From Alistipes sp. (GTDB lineage: Bacteria; Bacteroidota; Bacteroidia; Bacteroidales; Rikenellaceae), in contig JAFUOK010000051.1 in NCBI GenBank assembly GCA_017481925.1, positions 15,311 to 79,310 on the forward strand: a DNA stretch of 64,000 nucleotides. Direction: 5' to 3'. Below, piece by piece: positions 50,950-64,000 of this stretch (its first letter is position 1; each line of letters opens with the position of its first letter). Position numbers and translations under genes: made by a program. Below the pieces are notes generated by a model. That model did not search any database. It was not told where the DNA came from and saw nothing but the letters and a program-made list of their open reading frames with translations.

Positions 50950-51324
50950 ATGAAATTTATCGGTAACATTATTTGGGTTCTCTTTGGCGGACTACTCATC
51001 TCGTTGGGCTATCTATTTGGCGGACTGATATTGTGCCTTACAATTGTTGGTATTCCGTTCGGTGTGCAAATTATGCGTCTGGGAATGTTTGCGCTGTGGC
51101 CCTTCGGTGGCGAGGTGCGGCCCAAGCCCAACGCCACAGGATGCCTGCAAATCATTATGAATGTGCTGTGGATAATCTTCGGAGGCATCGAGGTAGCGCT
51201 CTCGCATCTGACCCTTGGCGTAGTCTTCTGCTGCACAATCATCGGAATCCCCTTCGGTCTGCAACACTTCAAACTAATGCTCTACGCCGTTCTTCCCTTC
51301 GGCCACGAGGTTGTAAGAGAATAA
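50950..51324 (+). CDS. YccF-domain inner membrane protein
   Basis: Duplicated N..W..FGG / TI.GIPFG / PFG motifs. Confidence 0.9.
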   Translation: MKFIGNIIWVLFGGLLISLGYLFGGLILCLTIVGIPFGVQIMRLGMFALWPFGGEVRPKPNATGCLQIIMNVLWIIFGGIEVALSHLTLGVVFCCTIIGIPFGLQHFKLMLYAVLPFGHEVVRE

Positions 51325-51356
51325 AAAAATCCCGCTTAATTAAAAGCGGGATTTTT
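51325..51356 (+). terminator. Intrinsic terminator
   Basis: AAAAATCCCGCTT / AAGCGGGATTTTT. Confidence 0.8.
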
Positions 51357-51412
51357 ATTTACATACTAAACTGCATAGCAACCCATATCACATTTAGCTG
51401 CCATATCTCAAT

Positions 51413-51445
51413 AAAAAAAACCGCCCCAATTAGAGCGGTTTTTTT
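51413..51445 (-). terminator. Intrinsic terminator of the left susC-susD unit
   Basis: A8-CCGC ... GCGG-T7, 18 nt past the susD stop. Confidence 0.75.
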
Positions 51446-51462
51446 ATAGAATAGAACATTAA

Positions 51463-53058
51463 TTAGTTCTGCTCAGACTCATCAATCATGCTGTTGTTAT
51501 CGATCTCAGTCATAGGAATCTGATACAAGAAGTTCTTAGCATCCTGAGTCAACGCATACTTAGCACCTGAGAAGTGGTTGTTAGCAGCACCCCAAGTAGC
51601 ATCGGTACGGTCGATAGGAATGTTCAAACGACGGTTGTCAAGGTACTCAATACCCTCACCCCAGAACTCAACACGCTTCTGATAGTTGATCTCCTCGATC
51701 AAAGCAGCCTTTGAAGAGAAAGTATAAGCGTAGTTAGGATCACGAGTTACCATAAAGTCGTTCAATACATCCACTGCATCGTCGCTACCCTGGTGAGCCA
51801 AAGCCTCAGCCAAGATGAAGTGAGCCTCCTCAGAACGCAAGTAGATGTAGTCACCAAGGTGCCAATTCGCACCTGCAAGATAGGCATCATCACCCGATCC
51901 TACAACACGAACATTAGAACGGCCACCACCAATAAACTTACAGCTCTGATAGTACACATAAGCACCAATCATACCAAACTCAGAAGCTAACTTACTGAGA
52001 TTACGAGGAGTCCAGAACCAATCAAGACGAATATCGGTATCAGAAATACGATCTACGAAAGGCTTGAAACCAGCACGCCATACACCGATACCAGCATAGC
52101 CATCACCGAACATATCCATCTGTGAGAACCAAGACATATAGATACCTGAGTTATCAGCAGTAATGTCACAACCGTAAACGACGTCAGGAAGATTGATATT
52201 GCTGAAGCCCTGGAGAATATCATTACCGGTCAAAACGGGATAATTGTCAACAATAACCTGAGCATACTTAGCAGCCTCTGACCACTCATGCTTGATCATA
52301 TGAGCACGAGCAAGGTACATTGCAGCGAAGCTACCATCGATATCGGTAGGAGACGCAGTCTTAACCATACCAAATGACTCAAACAAGTCATAAGCAGTCT
52401 TCAAGTCACCCATCAACTGAGTGTAAACCTGAGCAACTGTAGAACGAGGCTGGTCACCGGTAAGAGTCTCAGTTACGATAGGTACGCAAAGAGCGTTAGC
52501 ATTGTCATACTGCTGGCCCTTGCCCCATACAGTATCGTCAGCACCCATATAGTAGGGAAGACCATACAAATAAGAGAGGTGGAGGTAAGCATAACCACGA
52601 ACTGCCAAAGCAATAGCCTTGTACTTCAACACATCAGGATTGACCTCATCCTCAGCAATTGAAGCAATAATCTGGTTCGCACTATCGATTAAACGATAGT
52701 ACTGACGCCAACGGTTAAGTGTTGCATTGTAATCCTGCTGCCAATAGTCAAACAGATAGTGATAGATAGACATACCGTAACGGCCTGTCATAATCATATC
52801 GTTACCCATCAAAGATGTCAAATAATCGAAACTCTTCTGACCGAAGTAGTTATGCTGCATATTTGAATAAACGTATGACTGAATATCTGAGTAAATACCT
52901 GCTACCTGTGCAGCGAACACTTTATCGGGATTCTCGGCCGCGATCTCATTCTTCTTATCAGGAGTCAGGTAGGCTGTCACCTCTGCATCCTCAACACAAG
53001 AAGAGAGGGTCGTAGCAGCAAGAGCTGCCATAGCCAACATTGAAATTATTTTCTTCAT
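51463..53058 (-). CDS. RagB/SusD family outer membrane lipoprotein (cassette L)
   Basis: Lipobox LSSC; RGYAYL.L, YLRSEE..F..AEA, KRVEFWGEG..Y.D..R, IP..EI..N. Confidence 0.93.
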   Translation of the reverse strand: MKKIISMLAMAALAATTLSSCVEDAEVTAYLTPDKKNEIAAENPDKVFAAQVAGIYSDIQSYVYSNMQHNYFGQKSFDYLTSLMGNDMIMTGRYGMSIYHYLFDYWQQDYNATLNRWRQYYRLIDSANQIIASIAEDEVNPDVLKYKAIALAVRGYAYLHLSYLYGLPYYMGADDTVWGKGQQYDNANALCVPIVTETLTGDQPRSTVAQVYTQLMGDLKTAYDLFESFGMVKTASPTDIDGSFAAMYLARAHMIKHEWSEAAKYAQVIVDNYPVLTGNDILQGFSNINLPDVVYGCDITADNSGIYMSWFSQMDMFGDGYAGIGVWRAGFKPFVDRISDTDIRLDWFWTPRNLSKLASEFGMIGAYVYYQSCKFIGGGRSNVRVVGSGDDAYLAGANWHLGDYIYLRSEEAHFILAEALAHQGSDDAVDVLNDFMVTRDPNYAYTFSSKAALIEEINYQKRVEFWGEGIEYLDNRRLNIPIDRTDATWGAANNHFSGAKYALTQDAKNFLYQIPMTEIDNNSMIDESEQN

Positions 53059-53078
53059 AATCTTTTCCCTGTTTAAAA

Positions 53079-56000
53079 TTAGAAAGTAAGGTTAATACCA
53101 CCAGAAACAACTCGCATCGGAGAGTAACCACCGAATGAACCGTTACCACCACTCATAGATACACGGGGATCGAAGCCCTGGCGCTTAGACCACAATGCTA
53201 CGTTATCGCCAGTTACGAAGATACGGATACCGCCAATGCCCAACTTGCTCATCCAAGCCTTGGGGAATGAATAACCCAAAGTAAGGTTACGGATGCTGAA
53301 GTAAGAAGCCTTGATAAGGTGTGCATCAGATGACTGAGTGTAGCTGTTTGAAGAGTTATTTGCATTCCATACGGGAATTGTACCCTCACCAGTTGCAGGG
53401 TTATAAGTATTCCACATATCCTTGTTGTGACCAACATAGAATGAGTTGCTCATACCGCTCAAGTACTCAGAGTCGTATGCATAACCACCGATCTGGAATG
53501 CAGTAGCGATAGTAAGGTCGATACCCTTCCACTGGAATGTGGTGTTGAAACCACCAGTGAAGTCAGGCAGAGCCTCCTTGCCGAGCCAGTACTTAGAAGC
53601 ATCGCTGTGAGTAGAAGTCTTAACATCCTTACCAGTCTTCTCACCGGTCTCAGGATCAACCTCTTCCATCCACCACTGAGCATTACCGTTCTCATCCATG
53701 CCAGCGTACTTATATGTAAAGTACTCATAGTAGCTCTTACCCTCGAACAACTTGAACTGACCCTGAACGATACCCTCCTCGCGATTCATCTCGGGAAGAG
53801 TAAGAATCTCATTCTTGTAGTGAGAACCTACCAAAGTAGCAGTCCACTGGAAGTCGCGGTTCTTAAGAATGTCAACATTAATCTCGAACTCAATACCCTG
53901 GTTACCCATTGAACCGATGTTCTCCCAGTTGTAAGGACGACCAGTTGAGATAGCCAAAGGCTTCTGGAACAACATATCGTCGGTACGACGGTAGAAGTAA
54001 TCTACTGAACCATATACGCGATCCCACAAACGGAAATCGATACCAGCATCGATAGTAGTCTGCTTCTCCCAAGTCAAATCGGGATTACCGTAGAATGAAG
54101 TTGAATAACCGAGCTGAGCACCATCCCATGATACAGAATAGAGATCCTGGTAGGGAGTGTAGTTCAATACGTTCTCGTTACCCTGAGTACCATAAGATGC
54201 GCGGATCTTCAAATCGTTAACCCACTCAGCATTCTCCATCCAAGACTCTGAAGAGATACGCCAGCCTAAACCTACTGACCAGAAGTTACCCCAACGGTCC
54301 AAGAAACGAGAAGTACCATCACGACGGAAAGCACCTGAGATATAGTACTTGTTAGCGTAGTTATAGTCAGCCATAGCGAAGTAACCCTCGATCTGATGCT
54401 CCTGAGTGTAGCTCTCGATGTACTCCATCTGACCACCATTGATCAACTCGGGGTTGAAAGGCTCAAAGAACTGAGTCTTCTGGCCCTCAAAGATGTCGTT
54501 AGAATACTTATAGAACTCGTGACCAATCTTTGCAGAGATATTGTGATCGCCTACGATCTTGTTGTAAGCGAGCAACTGGTTGAAGTTCTGAGTGTAGTAG
54601 TTGTAAGCACCCTTAGTACCACGACCGTTGAATGACTGACCATCACCGATTGTGGGAGTGTAGTAGTCAGTGTCGTAACGGTTAGTAAAGTCGTAGCTAT
54701 AGTTTGCAGTGAAGGTGAAATCCTTCAAGAACTTAATCTCTACATAAGAACGAGTGGTAAGGTTGTGATACAAACGCTCAGTGATATTCTCCTTCAAAGT
54801 AGCGATTACGTTCTGGTTAGTAGCGGTAGGACGAGAAACAGTACCCTCGGTCTGACCAGTACCAGCATCGTAAACAGGTTTACCATTTGCGTCGGTAACC
54901 AAGTTACCCTGTGCATCGTATGCGTGTACGGGGAAGATAGGAGCCCAAGAACGAGCTACATCAAAGGGGTTTGAAGCCAAACCTACACCCTCCTGCACAC
55001 CATTCTGAGTAGTCTTAGAGTAGGCAATGTTAGTACCAACCTTCAACCAGGGCTTCAACTGTGAGTTAACGTTTACACGAGCTGAAATACGGTCGTAGTT
55101 AGAACCGATGATGTAAGACTGGTTGTCGAGGTAACCCATTGATACATAGTAGTCAGTTCTATCAGTACCACCTGAAGCAGATACCTGATACTCCTGACGG
55201 AGGGCGCTACCGAACATTGCATCAGCAAAGGTGTCGTTGTAACGAGACTTTGCTGCAGGATTCAACTTGCCGTCCAAGCCTACCAAATACTCACCATCGG
55301 GGATGATGAAAGCGTTGTAGTTGCCTAATTCGTGCATAATACCGTCGTCTGCATTAGGATCCATATTAGAAGCGACCAATGCAGCATCTTCTGCACTCAT
55401 ACCTCCTGACATTTGAGTGTTGCGAATACCATACCAAGTCAACTCATAGAACTCACCGGGATCAGTTACCATATTGTAGTCCTTATAAGCACGGCTGGTC
55501 ACACCCCAGTTTGCAGAGAACTGGATCTGGGTACGATCCTGACGACCGCTCTTAGTAGTAACCATTACCACACCGTTAGCAGCACGTGAACCGTAGAGTG
55601 AGTTAGACACAGCGTCCTTCGATACAGTGATTGACTGGATATCGGCGGGGTTGATGTCTGACAAACGACCGTTGAAAGGCACACCATCAACAACGATAAG
55701 AGCAGAGTTACCACCTGAGATAGAACCGATACCGCGCAATACGATATTTGAGTCCGCACCAGGCTGACCAGATGAGCTAAACACCTGAAGACCTGCTACA
55801 GCACCCTCCAATGCACCAGACACTGAAGTAGCCTGTGAGTTTGTGATGACGGCAGACTTAACGGTGCTGACCGAACCTACAACGTCCTGCTTACGCTTCG
55901 AACCGAACGCTACGACAACAACGTCATCCAAACGCTCTGTAGAAGCCTTAAGCACAACATTAATTAAAGTTTTACCTGCAATAGCGGTCTTTACATCCTC

Positions 56001-56237
56001 GTATCCGATAAATGATACGGTAATGATACCGTTAGCAGGAGCCGATAGTCTAAAGCTACCGTCTGCACTGGTGGTAGTACCAACTGAAGTGCCATCAACT
56101 ACGACAGTTGCGCCGACAACGGGAGTTCCCGTTTCGTCGACTACGGTACCGCTCACCTGCTGATTCTGAGCTACTACCATTGCAGCGGTAGCCAAAACAG
56201 CAAAGATAGAAAGTACAATTTTCCTAACCATAAGCAT
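53079..56237 (-). CDS. SusC/RagA TonB-dependent transporter (cassette L)
   Basis: Signal peptide, N-terminal extension, plug INPADI....KDA...YGSRAANGV, LTWEK, terminal Phe. Confidence 0.96.
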   Translation of the reverse strand: MLMVRKIVLSIFAVLATAAMVVAQNQQVSGTVVDETGTPVVGATVVVDGTSVGTTTSADGSFRLSAPANGIITVSFIGYEDVKTAIAGKTLINVVLKASTERLDDVVVVAFGSKRKQDVVGSVSTVKSAVITNSQATSVSGALEGAVAGLQVFSSSGQPGADSNIVLRGIGSISGGNSALIVVDGVPFNGRLSDINPADIQSITVSKDAVSNSLYGSRAANGVVMVTTKSGRQDRTQIQFSANWGVTSRAYKDYNMVTDPGEFYELTWYGIRNTQMSGGMSAEDAALVASNMDPNADDGIMHELGNYNAFIIPDGEYLVGLDGKLNPAAKSRYNDTFADAMFGSALRQEYQVSASGGTDRTDYYVSMGYLDNQSYIIGSNYDRISARVNVNSQLKPWLKVGTNIAYSKTTQNGVQEGVGLASNPFDVARSWAPIFPVHAYDAQGNLVTDANGKPVYDAGTGQTEGTVSRPTATNQNVIATLKENITERLYHNLTTRSYVEIKFLKDFTFTANYSYDFTNRYDTDYYTPTIGDGQSFNGRGTKGAYNYYTQNFNQLLAYNKIVGDHNISAKIGHEFYKYSNDIFEGQKTQFFEPFNPELINGGQMEYIESYTQEHQIEGYFAMADYNYANKYYISGAFRRDGTSRFLDRWGNFWSVGLGWRISSESWMENAEWVNDLKIRASYGTQGNENVLNYTPYQDLYSVSWDGAQLGYSTSFYGNPDLTWEKQTTIDAGIDFRLWDRVYGSVDYFYRRTDDMLFQKPLAISTGRPYNWENIGSMGNQGIEFEINVDILKNRDFQWTATLVGSHYKNEILTLPEMNREEGIVQGQFKLFEGKSYYEYFTYKYAGMDENGNAQWWMEEVDPETGEKTGKDVKTSTHSDASKYWLGKEALPDFTGGFNTTFQWKGIDLTIATAFQIGGYAYDSEYLSGMSNSFYVGHNKDMWNTYNPATGEGTIPVWNANNSSNSYTQSSDAHLIKASYFSIRNLTLGYSFPKAWMSKLGIGGIRIFVTGDNVALWSKRQGFDPRVSMSGGNGSFGGYSPMRVVSGGINLTF

Positions 56238-56261
56238 TAAATTTATTTGTACATATAAAAA
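56185..56261 (-). repeat. Left inverted repeat IRL (77 bp perfect)
   Basis: Reverse complement identical to 58045-58121; covers 24 nt of 5' UTR plus the first 53 nt of susC. Confidence 0.95.
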
Positions 56262-56295
56262 CGTGTATTTTCATTCTAATGTAAAAATACAACTG

Positions 56296-56327
56296 CAAAG
56301 TTACGGATTTAATCCGGTATTATCAAA
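56296..56327 (-). promoter_or_regulatory. Consensus sigma-A promoter aimed at the left susC
   Basis: Minus strand TTTG (56327-56324), 20-nt spacer, TAACTTTG (56303-56296). Confidence 0.78.
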
Positions 56328-56616
56328 AAATTTTAATATAAAATTAACATTGCTAAAATATTCCTACGATTGGGCTTCAAGAAGTTAAGGGGTGTAAGCG
56401 TCAATACGTAGTTTTATTGGAATCTGTAACCCCTTTTTGCAAGCATTTATGCAAGGAGCATAAATATTCTATTTTAGATTATATTTTGTTAGCAAAAAGA
56501 ACTCTAAAACTATTAGTTTCTAATCTACGACATGCGCTTTTTTGCGTAACATATAAACCAACATTACAAATGTAACTATATATTTTGACAAGTAATACGA
56601 CGTCGTGCAAAGATAA

Positions 56617-57834
56617 TCAATAATCCTGAAAATATATATTGATGCGATCCGAGGCCCGTTGCATCTCTCGGTTTACGACCGACTCCAAAATCTTTGCATA
56701 AATCTGCGTTGTCTTTATATCAGTGTGTCCCAACATCCGACTCACAGCCTCTATCGGTACGCCATACGATAGCGTGACCGTTGTTGCAAATGTATGACGG
56801 GCGGTATGGAATGTAATTCGTTTATTAATATTAGCACGTTGTGCCATATCCTTGATAACGCGATTGCACCAACAATTGGTTGGCAATGTAAAAATATGTT
56901 CATCGTTTGCCTCATCCATATATCGCTGGAGTATCTTTTGTGGGATCTTCAACAAGGGCACCTCTACCGATGTATGTGTCTTATTGCGACGTGTTGCGAT
57001 TGCCCACTGCTGTTCATCTATAATAATATCTCTTCTGGTGAGACCCGATATGTCCGAGTATGCTAAACCCGTAAAACATCCAAATATAAAAGCGTCCAGA
57101 ATTATCCGTTCTTTATCATTGCGTGCCGAGACTAGCATCATACGCCTTAACTCCTCCTTCAGCAGAAAATGTCGTCGCGAAGGTTCACTACGCAACTGAT
57201 AACCCAGAAAAGGATTCTGGTTGATACGACCGCAGGCAATAGCAAGCATAATGATATGTTTGAGCGCTGTCAGATATAGCCTTATCGTATTCACACTACA
57301 CTTGGCATCGGTGGCCAACCAATTATGGAATTCACATATCACATCACGATTAACACGATTGAGTGGTATGTCAGGAACTCCACGTGTTGTAAATATGAAT
57401 TTTTGAAGATGGTTGCAGACATACCTATATTTATATAAAGTATTAGGGCGGCGAATCGTTCCAACCATCTTTTCAAACTCTAGGTTATGCCGGCGAAAAA
57501 ATCCTACGACTCCATCAGAATCATCCTCTCCACCTATATATGCATTACGAATCATATATGCTGTTGGACGTTCATTAGATCGCAGAATCTTAAAATAGTT
57601 CTCTTGCAACGCATAACGAATATTATCTAATAAAGCATTTGTGCGCTTTGCTGCCTCACTACGTCCCCGCACACACTTACGGGAGTTATCCCATAGGCGT
57701 GCCTCTACGGCAAGGTGGGTTGAAAATGTACAAAACTCCCCGTCGATTGAAATACGGCAGATAATAGCAAGCTTTCCATTTTTGAGGGGCTGATTCTTCT
57801 TGATGTAGAAGAGGATTTTGAATTGATGTCTCAT
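56617..57834 (-). CDS. Tyrosine recombinase of the Bacteroidota arm-binding (IntDOT/IntN-like) type, putative invertase
   Basis: 405 aa from MRHQFKILFY; arm-binding-type N-terminus (I.CRISIDG, W), TGLAYSDI, RRNKT, FHTARHTFAT, LGH, TTQIYA; more AT-rich than flanking genes. Confidence 0.92.
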   Translation of the reverse strand: MRHQFKILFYIKKNQPLKNGKLAIICRISIDGEFCTFSTHLAVEARLWDNSRKCVRGRSEAAKRTNALLDNIRYALQENYFKILRSNERPTAYMIRNAYIGGEDDSDGVVGFFRRHNLEFEKMVGTIRRPNTLYKYRYVCNHLQKFIFTTRGVPDIPLNRVNRDVICEFHNWLATDAKCSVNTIRLYLTALKHIIMLAIACGRINQNPFLGYQLRSEPSRRHFLLKEELRRMMLVSARNDKERIILDAFIFGCFTGLAYSDISGLTRRDIIIDEQQWAIATRRNKTHTSVEVPLLKIPQKILQRYMDEANDEHIFTLPTNCWCNRVIKDMAQRANINKRITFHTARHTFATTVTLSYGVPIEAVSRMLGHTDIKTTQIYAKILESVVNREMQRASDRINIYFQDY

Positions 57835-58044
57835 AAAATATACCAAATTTAGTAAATAGATTGTTACATCACTATGGCAAGCGACGCATCTATATAACTC
57901 ATAAACTGGCAATTGCTTGCAATAAAATGAGTATTGTTTTATTAACTATTTTGACTCTTTTATGCGACATTCATCGACAAACAGCCCATTTAAGTTACCT
58001 ATGGGACGTGTATTGTTTTTACATTAAAAACGAAAATACACAAT

Positions 58045-58121
58045 TTTTTATATGTACAAATAAATTTAATGCTTATGGTTAGGAAAATTGTACTTTCTAT
58101 CTTTGCTGTTTTGGCTACCGC
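58045..58121 (+). repeat. Right inverted repeat IRR (77 bp perfect)
   Basis: TTTTTATATGTACAAATAAATTTAATGCTTATGGTTAGGAAAATTGTACTTTCTATCTTTGCTGTTTTGGCTACCGC. Confidence 0.95.
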
Positions 58122-61100
58122 CGCTATGGTAGTAGCACAGAACAGACAGGTGAGTGGTACGGTTAAGGACTCTGCAGGTCAGCCCATTATCGGTGCTACC
58201 GTTGTTGTAGAGGGTTCTACCGCAGGTACCACTACTGGTGCAGACGGAACCTTCAGATTGGATGCTCCCGTGAATTCCAATCTCGTTGTTTCGTTTATCG
58301 GTTATGAGTCTCAGACTATTGCGCTGGGATACAGAACCACTGTAGAGGTCGTTCTGGCGGACGACACTCAGTCTATCGACGATGTGGTTGTCGTAGCATA
58401 CGGTACTGCATCGAAGGAGGCGGTAACGGGTTCAGTGACAATGGTTAAGTCAGATGTCATTGAGCAGCGTACCACTTCAAACGTTACCAGTGCTCTTGAG
58501 GGTGCTTCAGCTGGTGTGCAGGTGAGCAGTTCATACGGTGAGCCGGGTGCATCTACCGACATTTTGATCCGTGGTTTCGGTTCAATCAACGGTAACAATG
58601 CTCCTCTCTACGTAGTTGATGGCAACATCTTCTCTGGTAACATGAGCGACTTGAACCCTGCCGACATTGAGTCAATGTCAATCTTGAAGGATGCTGCATC
58701 GGCTGCTCTTTACGGTTCTCGTGCTGCACAGGGTGTTGTACTTATCACTACCAAGAAGGGTAAGGAGAGCGGCAAATTGAACGTAAACGTATCAACCAAG
58801 CAGGGTGTTTACACTCGCGGTTTGAAGGAGTACGAGGTGTTGGATGCAGATCCTTGGATGGAGGTTATGTGGAATACCCTTTACAACGACTACAGTAACT
58901 CTTACGGCGCGACGTATGGTGATGAGTTCGTTCGTAACTACACCAACGCCAACTTTATCCGTGGTAACATCAAGAACAACATCTACGATGCTGCTGACGA
59001 TGCTATCATCGACCCCGCAACTGGTAAGGTTCAGGCTAAGGTTAAGCCTGGTTATACTGACCTCGATTGGTTTGAGCCCGTTGAGAAGACTGGTTACCGA
59101 GGTGAGTACAACATTCAGTTGGATGCTGCTGGCAACAACTACGATGTATTTGCTTCAGTAAACTACCTTAACGAGGAGGGTTATGTAGAGGCTACCGGTT
59201 TCGAGCGTACAACGGCTCGTGTTGCTGCTAACTTCACTCCCAAGAAGTGGTTTAAGGCTGGTGTAAACCTTTCAGGTTCATTGCAGACTCAGAACTACCG
59301 CGCTACGGCTTACTCATCATACTACGCTAACCCCTTCTACTCAGCACGTATGATGGCTCCCGTATATCCTTACTACGAGCACGACGATACTGGTGCTATC
59401 GTTCTTGATGCAAACGGCGAGCCCGTATGGAATACCAAGGCTTCATATCTCGACAACCGTAACATTGCTTACGAGTTGCGTAAGGACTACGACCGTAACT
59501 ATCGTACCACTTTGAACACCTCAGCTTACGCTACCTTCACATTCCTGAAGGACTTCCAGTTCACAGTTCGCGGTTCTATTGACCGTCGTCACCTTACTTC
59601 AAAGGCTTATAACAACAAGGAGATCGGTGATGGTGCTTCAAATGGCGGTCGTATGAGCAAGGATTTCTACGAGTATAACACTGTAAACTTGCAGCAGCAG
59701 CTCTCTTATGCCAAGACTTTTGGCAAGCACACCGTTGATGTTATGGTAGGTCATGAGAACTATGACTACAAGTACTCTTACGACTTCTCTATGAAGGTTG
59801 GTGAGGTATTGCAGACTGGTGTATTCGATGGCTTCTCTACTATGCAGTATATCGATGGTTACTCTCGTAACTACCACTCTGAGTCATACTTGGCTCGTGC
59901 ACGTTATAATTTCGACGAGCGTTACTTCGTAGAGGCTTCTTTCCGTCGTGATGGTTCTTCACGCTTTGCTAAGGATAGCCGTTGGGGTAACTTCTGGTCT
60001 CTTGGTGGTTCATGGGTAATCTCATCTGAGAAGTGGATGGAGAACGCCGAGTGGGTTGACTACTTGAAGCTCCGTGCATCTTATGGTGAGGTAGGTAATG
60101 ACTCATCTGCAGGTTACTACGCATCAAAGGGTCTCTACTCTGTAATCTCTACTAACGGCGGTAACGGCGCTTACTCACAGACTCAGTTTGCTAACACTGA
60201 CCTTAAGTGGGAGACTTCACAGTCATTCGACATCGGTATCGACGCTCGTTTGTGGAACACTGTTGATTTGACCGTTGATTACTTTAACAAGCGTTCAAAG
60301 GATCTGTTGTTCGACATGAACTTTGCTCAGTCTGTAGGTTCTTTGAGCCCCGGTGCATCATATCCTTCATTGACTCGCAATATCGGTTCAGTTGATAACT
60401 CTGGTTTCGAGGTTGCTGTAAATGTTGATATTTTCAACAAGCGCGACTTCAAGTGGAGCATTGGTGCTAACGCTTCATTCATCAAGAATGAGATTAAGAC
60501 TTTGCCCGCATCATCTGAGCCTGGTAACGGTTACATATCTGGCAACTACCGCTTCGAGGAGGGTCACTCAATGTATGAGTTCTACATGTATCAGTACGCA
60601 GGTGTTGATCAGTTGACTGGTGATGCTCTCTACTTGTTTGACGACAAAACCTATGGCGACATGACTGAGGCTTTGGAGTACTATGGTTACATCAGCAATA
60701 TCAATGACAAGTACTACACCGCCAACACCACCTACGCTAAGAAGGATTGGTCAGGCGAGGCTTTGCCCGATGTATATGGTGGTTTGCAGACCAACCTTTC
60801 ATGGAAGGGCTTGCACTTCAACTTGATGGCTTCTTACTCAATCGGTGGTAAGATCTACGATGGTACTTACCGTGGTTTGATGTATCCTTACTTGTCAGGT
60901 CCTCAGGCTTTGCACGTTGATATCCTTAACTCATGGACAGCTGCCCCCGAGGGTATGACTGCAGATTCAGCTAACCGTATCACAAAGGGTATATTCCCCC
61001 GTAACGATAGCTACGCTAACACTTATACTTACGCTGCTTCAGATCGTTGGTTGGTTGACGCTTCTTACTTTATCATCAAGAACATCGGCCTTTCATACGA

Positions 61101-61284
61101 CCTTCCCAAGAAGTGGGCTAACGCAATTGATTTGAGCAATATCAACGTCTCTGTTAATGTTGAGAACCCCTTCATCTTCACCAAGCGTGATGGTTTGAAC
61201 CCCCAGTACTCATTCTCTGGTTCACAGGATCAGACCTACGTTGCTGCTCGTATTTGGACAGTTGGTCTTAACATCAAACTCTAA
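58069..61284 (+). CDS. SusC/RagA TonB-dependent transporter (cassette R)
   Basis: First 25 aa identical to the left SusC; plug LNPADIES..ILKDAASAALYGSRAAQGV, LKWETS. Confidence 0.96.
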   Translation: MLMVRKIVLSIFAVLATAAMVVAQNRQVSGTVKDSAGQPIIGATVVVEGSTAGTTTGADGTFRLDAPVNSNLVVSFIGYESQTIALGYRTTVEVVLADDTQSIDDVVVVAYGTASKEAVTGSVTMVKSDVIEQRTTSNVTSALEGASAGVQVSSSYGEPGASTDILIRGFGSINGNNAPLYVVDGNIFSGNMSDLNPADIESMSILKDAASAALYGSRAAQGVVLITTKKGKESGKLNVNVSTKQGVYTRGLKEYEVLDADPWMEVMWNTLYNDYSNSYGATYGDEFVRNYTNANFIRGNIKNNIYDAADDAIIDPATGKVQAKVKPGYTDLDWFEPVEKTGYRGEYNIQLDAAGNNYDVFASVNYLNEEGYVEATGFERTTARVAANFTPKKWFKAGVNLSGSLQTQNYRATAYSSYYANPFYSARMMAPVYPYYEHDDTGAIVLDANGEPVWNTKASYLDNRNIAYELRKDYDRNYRTTLNTSAYATFTFLKDFQFTVRGSIDRRHLTSKAYNNKEIGDGASNGGRMSKDFYEYNTVNLQQQLSYAKTFGKHTVDVMVGHENYDYKYSYDFSMKVGEVLQTGVFDGFSTMQYIDGYSRNYHSESYLARARYNFDERYFVEASFRRDGSSRFAKDSRWGNFWSLGGSWVISSEKWMENAEWVDYLKLRASYGEVGNDSSAGYYASKGLYSVISTNGGNGAYSQTQFANTDLKWETSQSFDIGIDARLWNTVDLTVDYFNKRSKDLLFDMNFAQSVGSLSPGASYPSLTRNIGSVDNSGFEVAVNVDIFNKRDFKWSIGANASFIKNEIKTLPASSEPGNGYISGNYRFEEGHSMYEFYMYQYAGVDQLTGDALYLFDDKTYGDMTEALEYYGYISNINDKYYTANTTYAKKDWSGEALPDVYGGLQTNLSWKGLHFNLMASYSIGGKIYDGTYRGLMYPYLSGPQALHVDILNSWTAAPEGMTADSANRITKGIFPRNDSYANTYTYAASDRWLVDASYFIIKNIGLSYDLPKKWANAIDLSNINVSVNVENPFIFTKRDGLNPQYSFSGSQDQTYVAARIWTVGLNIKL

Positions 61285-61306
61285 TCAAAAGAAAGGGTAA
61301 GAAATT

Positions 61307-62965
61307 ATGAAAAAAATGATGAAATATTTTGCCGCCCTCGTCCTCGGAGCGATGATGATGACGGCCTGCTCGGAGGATTACCTCGAGACCTCTCCTACCA
61401 ACTCACTCGATGCGAGCCAGTTGAAGGAGAGCGTAGAGAACTTCGAGTCATATATCAACGGTATCAACCTTTTGATGGTTTACCAGCAGGGTGCATACGG
61501 TCAGGGTTACTGCGGTATGATGAACCTGCTCAGCAAGCTCGGAAATGAGTGTGGTAACGACTGGTCAGGTTTGGCATTCGGTGGTTACAACTCTGCTAAC
61601 ATGGCTCTTACCACCAATAACAATGCTGCCTACTCAGGTTACGCATGGTGGTTCCTCTATCAGATCATCGGTCAGGCTAACCGCGTATTGGTGCAGATCA
61701 AGGACGCTGAGGGTGATGAGGATTTGAAGGCATTCTATACTGCACAGGCATTGACCTATCGTGCTTACTGCTACCAGTACTTGGTACAGGTCTTCTCAAA
61801 GCGCTGGATGGACTCTAACAACGGTGCAACAGAAGGTGTTATTCTTCGTCTTGATGATGACATGAACGCCGAGGGTCTTTACAACACTCCTGACAAGGGT
61901 GTTTCAACTCTTGCAGAGTGCTACGCTCAGATCTATGCAGACTGTGATGAGGCTATCTCATTGTTCCAGCAGTCAGGTATGGATGCAAAGAACTTCTACG
62001 AGCCCAGCCTTGCTTTGGCTATCGGAGTAAAGGCTCGTGCCGCTCTCTGCCGCGAGGATTGGGAGACTGCCGCTGAGTATGCAGGCATGATCTCTAAGGC
62101 TTACGGCTTGATGTCAGCAGACGAGTTCCAGTCAGGTTTCCACACCGCTAACGACGAGTGGATTTTCGGTGGTTGGGGTAGCAGTTCAGAGAACATGTGG
62201 TACTACACATTCGGTACATACTACGCATACAATGGTTACTATTCAGCTCGTGGTGGTTACAATATTATTGGCAACCGTGACCTTGTAGACAAGTTGTCTG
62301 ACGCTGATGCTCGTAAGCAGTTGTACGTTACCCCCTCATACATGGGCTACTCTGCAGAGGATATTGATGCAGCATTTGAGAGCGGTCTCTTAAACTCATA
62401 TTGCGAGCCCGACACGGATACTGATGAGGGTTACGCAATGGCCGAGAACATTTTCATGTACACTGTAGCAGGCGTTCCCGGTGTTGCAGCTAACATCAAT
62501 ACTACCGGTTACTATCCTGCATATCAGGCATTCTACAGCCAGTTGAAGTTTGGTGTATTTGATCTTCCCGGTGTTCACCACTCAGTTTATATGCGCGCAG
62601 CCGAGATGTATCTGACTCAGGCCGAGGCTCTTTGCAAGCAGGCTGAGCCTGACTACGCTACTGCACAGGATTTGCTCTACGCTGTAAACTCACGTCTTGA
62701 TCCTACTTACGAGAAGTCAACCAGCACTGGTCAGGCTTTGATCGATGAGATCATGTTCTATCGCCGCGCTGAGTTGTGGGGTGAGGGTCACGACTGGTTC
62801 GATTTGAAGCGTACTGGTGGCACTATCTCACGTCGCGACACCAAGGACGGTGGTACCTTCGGTGCAAACTTCGCTAAGACCATTGGTCCTAACGATGAAG
62901 GTACTAACGACTGGGTATGGGTTATACCTTTGGCAGAGACTCAGTACAACGCTGAGTTGAAGTAA
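61307..62965 (+). CDS. RagB/SusD family outer membrane lipoprotein (cassette R)
   Basis: Lipobox MTAC; RAYCY..L, MRAAEMYL..AEA, RRAELWGEG..WFDLKR. Confidence 0.93.
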   Translation: MKKMMKYFAALVLGAMMMTACSEDYLETSPTNSLDASQLKESVENFESYINGINLLMVYQQGAYGQGYCGMMNLLSKLGNECGNDWSGLAFGGYNSANMALTTNNNAAYSGYAWWFLYQIIGQANRVLVQIKDAEGDEDLKAFYTAQALTYRAYCYQYLVQVFSKRWMDSNNGATEGVILRLDDDMNAEGLYNTPDKGVSTLAECYAQIYADCDEAISLFQQSGMDAKNFYEPSLALAIGVKARAALCREDWETAAEYAGMISKAYGLMSADEFQSGFHTANDEWIFGGWGSSSENMWYYTFGTYYAYNGYYSARGGYNIIGNRDLVDKLSDADARKQLYVTPSYMGYSAEDIDAAFESGLLNSYCEPDTDTDEGYAMAENIFMYTVAGVPGVAANINTTGYYPAYQAFYSQLKFGVFDLPGVHHSVYMRAAEMYLTQAEALCKQAEPDYATAQDLLYAVNSRLDPTYEKSTSTGQALIDEIMFYRRAELWGEGHDWFDLKRTGGTISRRDTKDGGTFGANFAKTIGPNDEGTNDWVWVIPLAETQYNAELK

Positions 62966-62987
62966 TCCAACTCCATAACACAAAATT

Positions 62988-63018
62988 TCCCGCTCTCCAT
63001 TGAGGGCGGGATTTTTTT
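62988..63018 (+). terminator. Intrinsic terminator of the right susC-susD unit
   Basis: TCCCGCTCTC / GAGGGCGGGA followed by T7. Confidence 0.8.
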
Positions 63019-63038
63019 GATATATGGGAAGCGAAAAG

Positions 63039-64000
63039 CTATCGCTTCTTTAACAAGATATGCTCCAAAAGCATTACCGTAATAACGCCCATCACAAAGC
63101 CATTTCCCAGTATTGGACGTACAACTGCGGGCACAACATCCATAGGCACGGCACCGAACAACATCGCCACCATAACGGGCAGGCCGATAATCAGCGCATC
63201 GTCAAACGAGAGAACTGACTTCGACGTGATAAGCATATTAAACGCTGCGGCAAGTTGTGTACCCATCAGGTAGAGCAGGATAACTCCGATTACCGTATTG
63301 GGAATGGCCGACATAACCGCTATTAACGAAGGCACAAAGGCGCAAATAATCAACGCTGCACCCGCAGGAATCAACGCATAGCGTGAGGCACACGACGACG
63401 AGGCGATAACGCCGGGCGACATAGAGTAGTTCACCGGGCCGATGATTCCCAAGCCACCAGCAACGACATTCATTATACCCGTAATAGCCACTCCGCGACC
63501 GCAACGCTTGTCGGTGTCGGGCGTTGAGAGCATACCACCCAATGCCTGAATCGAGCCAACATCATTTATCAGCAGAGCCACATAACACAGCAGAAAAGCC
63601 ACAATCATACTGCCATCAAACTCCAGCTGCGGAATCAGCAGCGAACCCTCCGACTCTGTATAACGGGCAAAGACATCACCGAAACCGCCATATATTGCAT
63701 AATATATCACGCATCCTACCAGCAACGAAATCGGAATAATAATCGATTTAAGCACTCCGCGCAGACGATGTGACGCCAAAGCCATCGCAGGGACACCCGC
63801 AATGGTGAGCCACAAGGCGAACGTATGACGCTCCACCTCGGCTGCAGGGAATATAAGGTTCTTGATCGTAGGTCCGAGCGTTATGGCAATCAGCATCAAT
63901 ATCACGATTACGATACGAGGCGTGAAAATTCGCTGCAGATGCGACAGCACACGTGCCGCGGCAAGCACCGTAACAGCCACACCGCCAACCATAACGGCGG
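63039..64000 (-). CDS. Uracil-xanthine (NAT/NCS2) permease, 5' end outside the window
   Basis: Multi-TM protein; FTPRI, NDVGS, YSMSPGVIA.S..ASR signature-like segment, IP..VIG. Confidence 0.82.
   Translation of the reverse strand, partial: AVMVGGVAVTVLAAARVLSHLQRIFTPRIVIVILMLIAITLGPTIKNLIFPAAEVERHTFALWLTIAGVPAMALASHRLRGVLKSIIIPISLLVGCVIYYAIYGGFGDVFARYTESEGSLLIPQLEFDGSMIVAFLLCYVALLINDVGSIQALGGMLSTPDTDKRCGRGVAITGIMNVVAGGLGIIGPVNYSMSPGVIASSSCASRYALIPAGAALIICAFVPSLIAVMSAIPNTVIGVILLYLMGTQLAAAFNMLITSKSVLSFDDALIIGLPVMVAMLFGAVPMDVVPAVVRPILGNGFVMGVITVMLLEHILLKKR

Follow-up and report, generated by a model that had tools for sequence, protein, structure and literature searches.

The 64,000-nt stretch of DNA from a ruminant-gut Alistipes sp. 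analysed here (the window, below) carries two susC/susD units, left (L) and right (R), that point away from a common centre of about 1.8 kb, as seen alike in the open reading frame (ORF) listing, in a repeat search and by direct reading. This centre is very likely a self-contained invertible promoter cassette, one of an Alistipes-specific family, which flips a promoter between the L and R units. The anatomy of the cassette and the conservation and covariation of its short recombination sites are observed directly, and a near-identical strain and a sister species both show inversion at these sites.

In the mechanism proposed here, a segment of about 1.73 kb (roughly 56287-58016), made up of a recombinase gene with one outward promoter at its far end and bounded by two inverted 13-nt TTTTACATTARAA sites, would be inverted by strand exchange within the first 10-11 nt of the sites, with the local recombinase as the probable catalyst. 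The promoter would then read through a site and the shared leader into susC-L/susD-L (the state as assembled) or into susC-R/susD-R. Both units would be intact in either state, the promoter-less one having no recognisable promoter of its own; going by the position of the promoter, either/or expression of the two would be expected.

On the surface of gut Bacteroidota, few proteins are more abundant than SusC/SusD pairs, which serve as nutrient gates, phage receptors and antigens. Such switches are usually read as a means of escape from a phage or an antibody directed at an importer abundant on the surface, and this may be the purpose here too. Alistipes, a common but little-studied gut genus, would own a compact, widely conserved device for displaying now one, now the other of two unrelated importers. 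With the exact sites, the promoter position and both natural states defined, any metagenome can be scored for orientation, and a plasmid copy of the switch can be built.

Anatomy of the cassette

The promoter is a Bacteroidetes-type TTTG-N20-TAACTTTG motif on the minus strand (56296-56327), with its -7 box at 56296-56303 and its -33 TTTG at 56324-56327, and reads outward toward susC-L through s_d2, the promoter-end one of the two sites at which crossover is predicted (TTTTACATTAGAA read outward; 56274-56286, minus strand). The consensus TTTG-N20-TAnnTTTG lies 9 nt inside one site. The second predicted crossover site, s_u (TTTTACATTAAAA read outward; 58017-58029, plus strand), lies at the other end of the cassette, on the 5′ side of the recombinase gene. 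The pattern TTTTACATTARAA has exactly two matches in the 64 kb, inverted and at the cassette ends, where 0.00 are expected from shuffled sequence. As in other invertons, inverted sites thus bound a promoter-bearing segment. A third site, s_d1 (TTTTATATTAAAA; 56331-56343, minus strand), is found on the recombinase side of the promoter, with the core TAT vs. CAT in s_u and s_d2. Upstream of the susC-R ATG there is no TAnnTTTG facing this gene; the sole one so oriented (58098-58105) falls within the coding part of the repeat described next.

The starts of the two susC genes share a perfect 77-bp inverted repeat, whose left arm (56185-56261) lies outside the invertible segment and whose right arm (58045-58121) covers the leader and the signal-peptide coding part of susC-R. 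Each arm comprises the first 53 coding nt of its susC, encoding the signal peptide, and 24 nt of leader; the signal peptide encoded by the two is identical (MLMVRKIVLSIFAVLATAAMVVAQN), as are residues 1-25 of SusC-L and SusC-R. The repeat extends imperfectly to 129 nt at 90% match, and the 1.9-Mb, 78-contig genome holds no further copy of the 77 bp beyond the two arms. The predicted crossover sites s_u and s_d2 lie 12-15 nt inside these repeats. The 77-bp repeat is a common leader/signal-peptide module: each susC keeps its copy on inversion, and the crossover falls elsewhere. Around 56209-56242, contigs of two DNA sequencing runs match the signal-peptide coding part and then diverge upstream; to judge from these contigs, this 5′ coding module is shared by other susC genes of those gut communities, and the mouse-gut sister species discussed below has it in conserved form too (MLMVRKIVLSI...).

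The sole convincing gene in the 1783 nt between the 77-bp arms (56617-57834, minus strand) encodes a 405-aa tyrosine recombinase with Arm-DNA-bind_5, Phage_int_SAM_5 and Phage_integrase domains (Pfam scores of 68.6, 49.2, and 56.1 bits, against curated cut-offs of 27.1, 22.6, and 22.3). Residues R283, K285, H343, R346, H370, and Y379 are invariant in eight members of the subfamily, and the H-x-x-R motif (H343, R346), H370 and Y379 align to the corresponding XerA motifs: this catalytic set is intact. A candidate -7 box for the recombinase's own promoter, TAAATTTG (57844-57851, minus strand), is recognised by motif only, 10 nt before the ATG. About 270 nt of non-coding DNA (56344-56616) separate the recombinase stop codon from s_d1, and hold two extra TAnnTTTG-like boxes in the direction of the recombinase, near 56608-56615 and 56567-56574. 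Elsewhere in the genome (G000:C52:2568-3731) is a further recombinase gene of this general type, its product 33% identical to this one.

These results bear out all the observations in a preliminary description of the locus, which had claimed two divergent, separately terminated susC-susD units (the ORFs, and a hairpin after each unit, agree), a perfect 77-bp inverted repeat with the coordinates above (recovered by the repeat search), a single convincing gene, for a tyrosine recombinase, in the 1783 bp between its arms (supported by Pfam), a perfect TTTG-N20 promoter facing the left susC (the motif at 56296-56327 on the minus strand), and no TAnnTTTG facing the right one (true upstream of its ATG).

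Two more exact copies of TTTTACATTAAAA occur in the same genome, at G000:C15:7071-7083 and G000:C77:3370-3382 (L222 and L223), while the reversed control pattern has none. Both are in A/T-rich intergenic DNA, the C15 copy just upstream of a TATCTTTG box. They were considered as partner sites and rejected, as their surroundings are unlike susC leaders and no susC or recombinase gene is nearby; they are probably due to chance.

Inversion in related strains and species

At 90% identity, the window recombinase sits in a 65-member cluster, one member of which (P0045) is identical to it at 400 of 405 residues. In the P0045 strain the promoter, the three sites and their inner contexts (at least 13 nt) are identical to those of the window, the cassette as a whole has 96.7% nucleotide identity, and the permease-side SusC and SusD are 98 and 97% identical to SusC-R and SusD-R. 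Two assembled sequences of this strain differ in orientation: L214 has the window arrangement and L213 the opposite one, with flanks that are 99.88-99.98% identical and a 1735-nt centre that is 100% identical. The site is shorter than k, and the junction information therefore survives in k=31 contigs assembled from single runs. One of these (L215) has both reciprocal flipped junctions; two others (L216 and L217) each have one junction diagnostic of each state; and a fourth (L218) stops exactly at site position 10, where the two versions diverge. The centres of all four have 0 mismatches. In L215 the A/G difference at site position 11 remains with the flank, and the exchange therefore lies within TTTTACATTA, which maps the crossover in this strain to the first 10-11 nt of the site. 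Most simply read, these contigs show the two states side by side within individual samples.

The mouse-gut sister species of Alistipes has a 412-aa recombinase that is 51% identical to the window's, with one and the same protein found in many assemblies. Contigs L127 and L126, L129, and L130 have a common context (DSBA ... SusD506-SusC981, cassette, SusC1059-SusD485-PHO4-permease). When L127 is compared with the other three, the flanks are 99.9% identical, while the 1750-nt centre is 100% identical but inverted, and the overlaps are exactly the 13-nt sites; the promoter faces SusC1059 in one state and SusC981 in the other. One arm has a 176-nt insert separating the site from the long susC repeat, yet the inversion still falls exactly at the sites, which makes the long repeat dispensable. 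This insert (L032:66-240; downstream of 10852 in L127) is G+C-rich, precedes the SusC1059 leader, and would form part of a 5′ untranslated region only.

A different inversion separates L121, L123, and L124 from L125: here only the recombinase gene is inverted, as a 1700-nt piece with the upstream site at one end and the inner downstream site at the other, and the promoter is unmoved. The inner downstream site, the equivalent of s_d1 in the window, is thus the one used for recombinase-only inversion in this species. Whole-cassette inversion was also considered as the difference between L031 and L032, and was rejected: the promoter alone changes sides, which amounts to the recombinase-only inversion. 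In L125 and L128, the same 412-aa cassette and SusC1059 side are joined to ClpB, AspRS ... SusC1000 instead of the DSBA ... SusC981 of L127, with the susD on the SusC1000 side split into 344 and 160 aa; this change of context reflects replacement of the cargo or else a large rearrangement involving distant sites.

In both the same-cluster strain and the sister species, then, the two orientations are found in nature with breakpoints at the sites. The preliminary description had proposed that recombination between the long repeats flips the promoter together with the recombinase gene, and had suggested comparing orientation in related genomes. That comparison does find both orientations, and the flip between intact units stands; the crossover, however, is in the 13-nt sites and not in the repeats.

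The left slot is occupied differently in other strains of the cluster: its SusC and SusD there (L214:7604-12436; L219:7599-12428) are only 38-39 and 29-30% identical to the window's 51463-56237 pair, and the gene beyond the slot also differs, while the permease-side unit is orthologous (84-98%). The leader and signal peptide have therefore been kept from strain to strain while the cargo behind them was replaced.

The state of the window strain and other explanations

An inversion between arms of this length might be brought about by general homologous recombination, the recombinase being incidental. The 77 bp of perfect identity would suffice for RecA-type exchange, and the promoter-side junction of L213 does show site-proximal sequence as from exchange in the long repeat. 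Against this, the reciprocal junctions of L215 and the upstream junction of L213 switch within the 13-nt site, 12-27 nt inside the long repeat; the sister species inverts exactly at its 13-nt sites despite the 176-nt insert; and the sites covary between the arms of each locus, in at least nine variants. The odd junction of L213 is best explained as an assembler path through a mixed graph, the assembler having threaded a mixed population through the repeat. Homologous recombination is accordingly regarded here as a highly improbable route.

Several observations weigh against site-specific switching with either/or expression, or against its operation in the window strain. All resolved assemblies of this strain (L023-L026, two scaffolds, and contigs of the source run) are left-ON; these possibly stem from one campaign, so that their independence is doubtful, and the two scaffolds have N-gaps at the inner repeat edges. 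The sites s_u and s_d2 mismatch at position 11 (A/G). In the recombinase, the position aligned to the first arginine (box I) of XerA is Ala or Ser in the subfamily (TGLAYSD vs. TGVRVGE), Ala in the window enzyme; the nearby invariant R283 may substitute for it, as in IntDOT, which has the same first-arginine peculiarity. The promoter is identified by its motif. Contigs of an RNA library (run X19) are identical to the window on both susC genes, which fits either a mixed population or independent transcription of the two. Finally, in the assemblies with both orientations, two fixed sub-strains may coexist, instead of switching being ongoing.

Some of these points could mean that the switch is frozen in the window strain, its cassette a relic locked in the left-ON state. 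The single orientation of all its assemblies, the difference between s_u and s_d2, and a k=31 contig of the source run that passes unbranched through both sites would fit this, k=31 contigs of runs holding the locus otherwise breaking at the 77-bp repeat. The depth of the source run is only about 6-8, however, too low for a state in the minority to assemble; the recombinase gene encodes a full-length protein that has kept its catalytic residues; and the strain that does flip has identical sites, promoter and inner context (at least 13 nt), down to the A/G difference. A frozen switch seems quite unlikely, and the switch of the window strain is very probably functional. It is also conceivable that inversion occurs without either/or expression, each unit having its own promoter and the flip modulating expression levels or expression of the recombinase. 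The X19 contigs on both susC-L and susC-R could be taken in this sense, all the more as none falls on the recombinase, which argues against DNA carry-over. Yet only 39 nt separate s_u from the susC-R ATG, with no upstream TAnnTTTG facing that gene, and a mixed population accounts for RNA of both units; in a second RNA run (X20), about 97% identical contigs of a related strain extend along susC-R/susD-R. (Contig cover of this kind cannot rank expression, and parts of the locus uncovered in X19 or X20 are not evidence of silence.) Very little credence is given here to units with promoters of their own, and a promoter flipped by the local recombinase is preferred to these alternatives.

The cassette family, related systems and the surroundings of the locus

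From genus representatives, metagenome contigs and named genomes, a simple rule emerges: Alistipes recombinases at least about 40% identical to the window's are flanked on both sides by inverted repeats at divergent susC starts, while more distant homologues lack the sites, the repeats and the flanking susC layout. Every locus of the family has a short A/T site, TTTTAnnTTAAAA, inside the long repeats, with one inverted copy 195-300 nt upstream of the recombinase gene and one or two copies 256-360 nt downstream. In eight aligned loci the distance from the distal site inward to a TAnnTTTG box is 9-12 nt, and in 15 named ones such a box is within 30 nt of that site; the layout recurs in at least 15 named Alistipes/Rikenellaceae genomes, which come from mice, deer, chickens, and humans. 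The site comes in at least nine variants (with, for example, the cores CAT, TAT, TTT, CTT, and ATT), which differ among loci and agree between the two arms of any one locus. Such covariation is the behaviour due of partner sites of a tyrosine recombinase, as these need matching overlap regions. The TTTTATTTTAAAA form occurs in some related cultured Alistipes.

The window recombinase itself has no close orthologue among 36 species representatives of the genus (best match 44% identical), and a scan of metagenome contigs with it found no same-species contig, only relatives at most 53% identical. An integrase about 41% identical to it over residues 1-398, with a near-constant score, occurs in Bacteroides, Parabacteroides, Prevotella, Phocaeicola, Odoribacter, and bins labelled Lachnospiraceae or Bacillota (L142, L144-L150, and L153-L159, among others). 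Its loci are without the sites, and it looks like a widely transferred mobile-element integrase.

The preliminary description was aware of no described two-way switch of this layout in Rikenellaceae. There is precedent in two Bacteroides species. In B. thetaiotaomicron, the susC-led operons BT1040, BT1042, and BT1046 are shuffled by a local tyrosine recombinase, BT1041, which is required there, and phage evasion has been proposed as the role of this shufflon (Porter et al., 2020; bioRxiv 10.1101/521070). Like the window, it has a tyrosine recombinase gene among alternative susC operons and, by site-specific recombination at their 5′ ends, transfers the expressed 5′ end with its promoter between susC genes. 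Unlike the window, it uses a 7-bp site within the susC coding sequence, by which an N-terminal domain that makes the anti-sigma contact is passed to truncated genes, and it involves three genes and a promoter controlled by an extracytoplasmic function (ECF) sigma factor; the window has two complete units, sites in the leaders, no ECF sigma factor or STN domain, and a recombinase inside the flipped segment. Here the crossover maps not within susC, as in the BT1041 system, but to the leader site 36-39 nt upstream of the ATGs, and the ORFs are complete in either state. No B. thetaiotaomicron locus is among the best 80 named matches to the window recombinase.

In B. fragilis, susC/susD clusters undergo shufflon-type inversions by a master invertase, Tsr0667, that acts globally on 12 distant regions (Nakayama-Imaohji et al., 2009, as cited in PMC4747536 and PMC9881135). 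There too, tyrosine-recombinase inversions choose which SusC/SusD family proteins are made; the window differs in its local recombinase and its A/T-only 13-mer site. Tsr0667 sites reportedly follow the consensus AGTYYYN4GDACT. Allowing at most one mismatch, this pattern is not enriched in the window, with 16 matches against 13.4 expected, none of them at the cassette ends. The H segment of Salmonella (Hin, acting at hix sites, with fljBA) resembles the window in having an invertase gene and an outward promoter inside the inverting segment, and in changing a surface protein. Hin, however, is a serine invertase that works with an enhancer and Fis and turns one operon on or off, the alternative being silenced via a repressor, whereas in the window a tyrosine recombinase would aim one promoter directly at either of two operons. 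Programmed inversions across bacteria are enriched most of all in certain gene families, SusC/RagA genes among them (PMC9881135).

No literature on this cassette in Alistipes was found in a search of a library with few subscription journals. The window system departs from the known ones in its leader sites, the recombinase in the flipped segment, its two complete units and its A/T-only 13-mer; the optional third site, present in some loci including the window, also sets it apart. What is specific to the present analysis is the definition of a covarying site, two kinds of inversion, a genus-wide distribution and the replacement of left-slot cargo. No new principle is involved, the same logic being established in Bacteroides.

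A broader suggestion, tentative and on balance unlikely, is that the cassette is an Alistipes "expression platform," in which the shared leader and signal peptide are an entry point for swappable SusC/SusD cargo, combined with a four-state form of the switch with three sites. If so, a universal module, conserved at the nucleotide level from ruminant to mouse species, would admit very different cargo in two slots, and a recombinase that flips apart from the promoter could set its own expression, and hence the switching rate.

The two units themselves are of similar make-up. On the minus strand, susC-L (53079-56237) encodes 1052 aa with CarbopepD_reg_2, Plug and TonB-dependent barrel domains and no STN domain according to Pfam, and is followed by susD-L (51463-53058; 531 aa; SusD-like_3 and SusD_RagB); on the plus strand, susC-R (58069-61284; 1071 aa) has the same domains, again with no STN, and is followed by susD-R (61307-62965; 552 aa), of the SusD family by Pfam. 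Both SusD N-termini have a lipoprotein-like signal with a terminal Cys. Each unit therefore has what defines a SusC/SusD (RagA/RagB) importer pair: SusC domains, with a SusD-family lipoprotein directly after. The units are old paralogues, SusC-L and SusC-R being 39% identical, and SusD-L and SusD-R 24%. A terminator-like hairpin 3′ of susD-L (51325-51356, minus strand) has a 13-pair stem followed by a T run, and is probably also used by the convergent YccF gene; the one 3′ of susD-R (62988-63011, plus strand) has 10 pairs, seven of them G-C, followed by T7. An Rfam search of 51000-63500 gave zero matches, and a scan for sigma-70-type promoters, a model not relevant to Bacteroidota, gave fewer matches than in shuffled sequence.

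The features of a classical polysaccharide utilization locus (PUL) are absent: among the neighbours there are no glycoside hydrolase or sensor/regulator genes, and neither SusC has an STN domain by Pfam. The flanking genes (YccF, threonine dehydratase, and a xanthine/uracil permease) are housekeeping genes, and the L and R units are therefore stand-alone SusCD pairs, not classical PULs. The permease gene (63039-63992) adjoins susD-R, and a permease, in relatives together with a GDPD gene, also adjoins one susD in close strains and in the mouse-gut species (L125-L130, L211). To judge from this gene order, the switch seems to sit at a conserved chromosomal position across Alistipes species.

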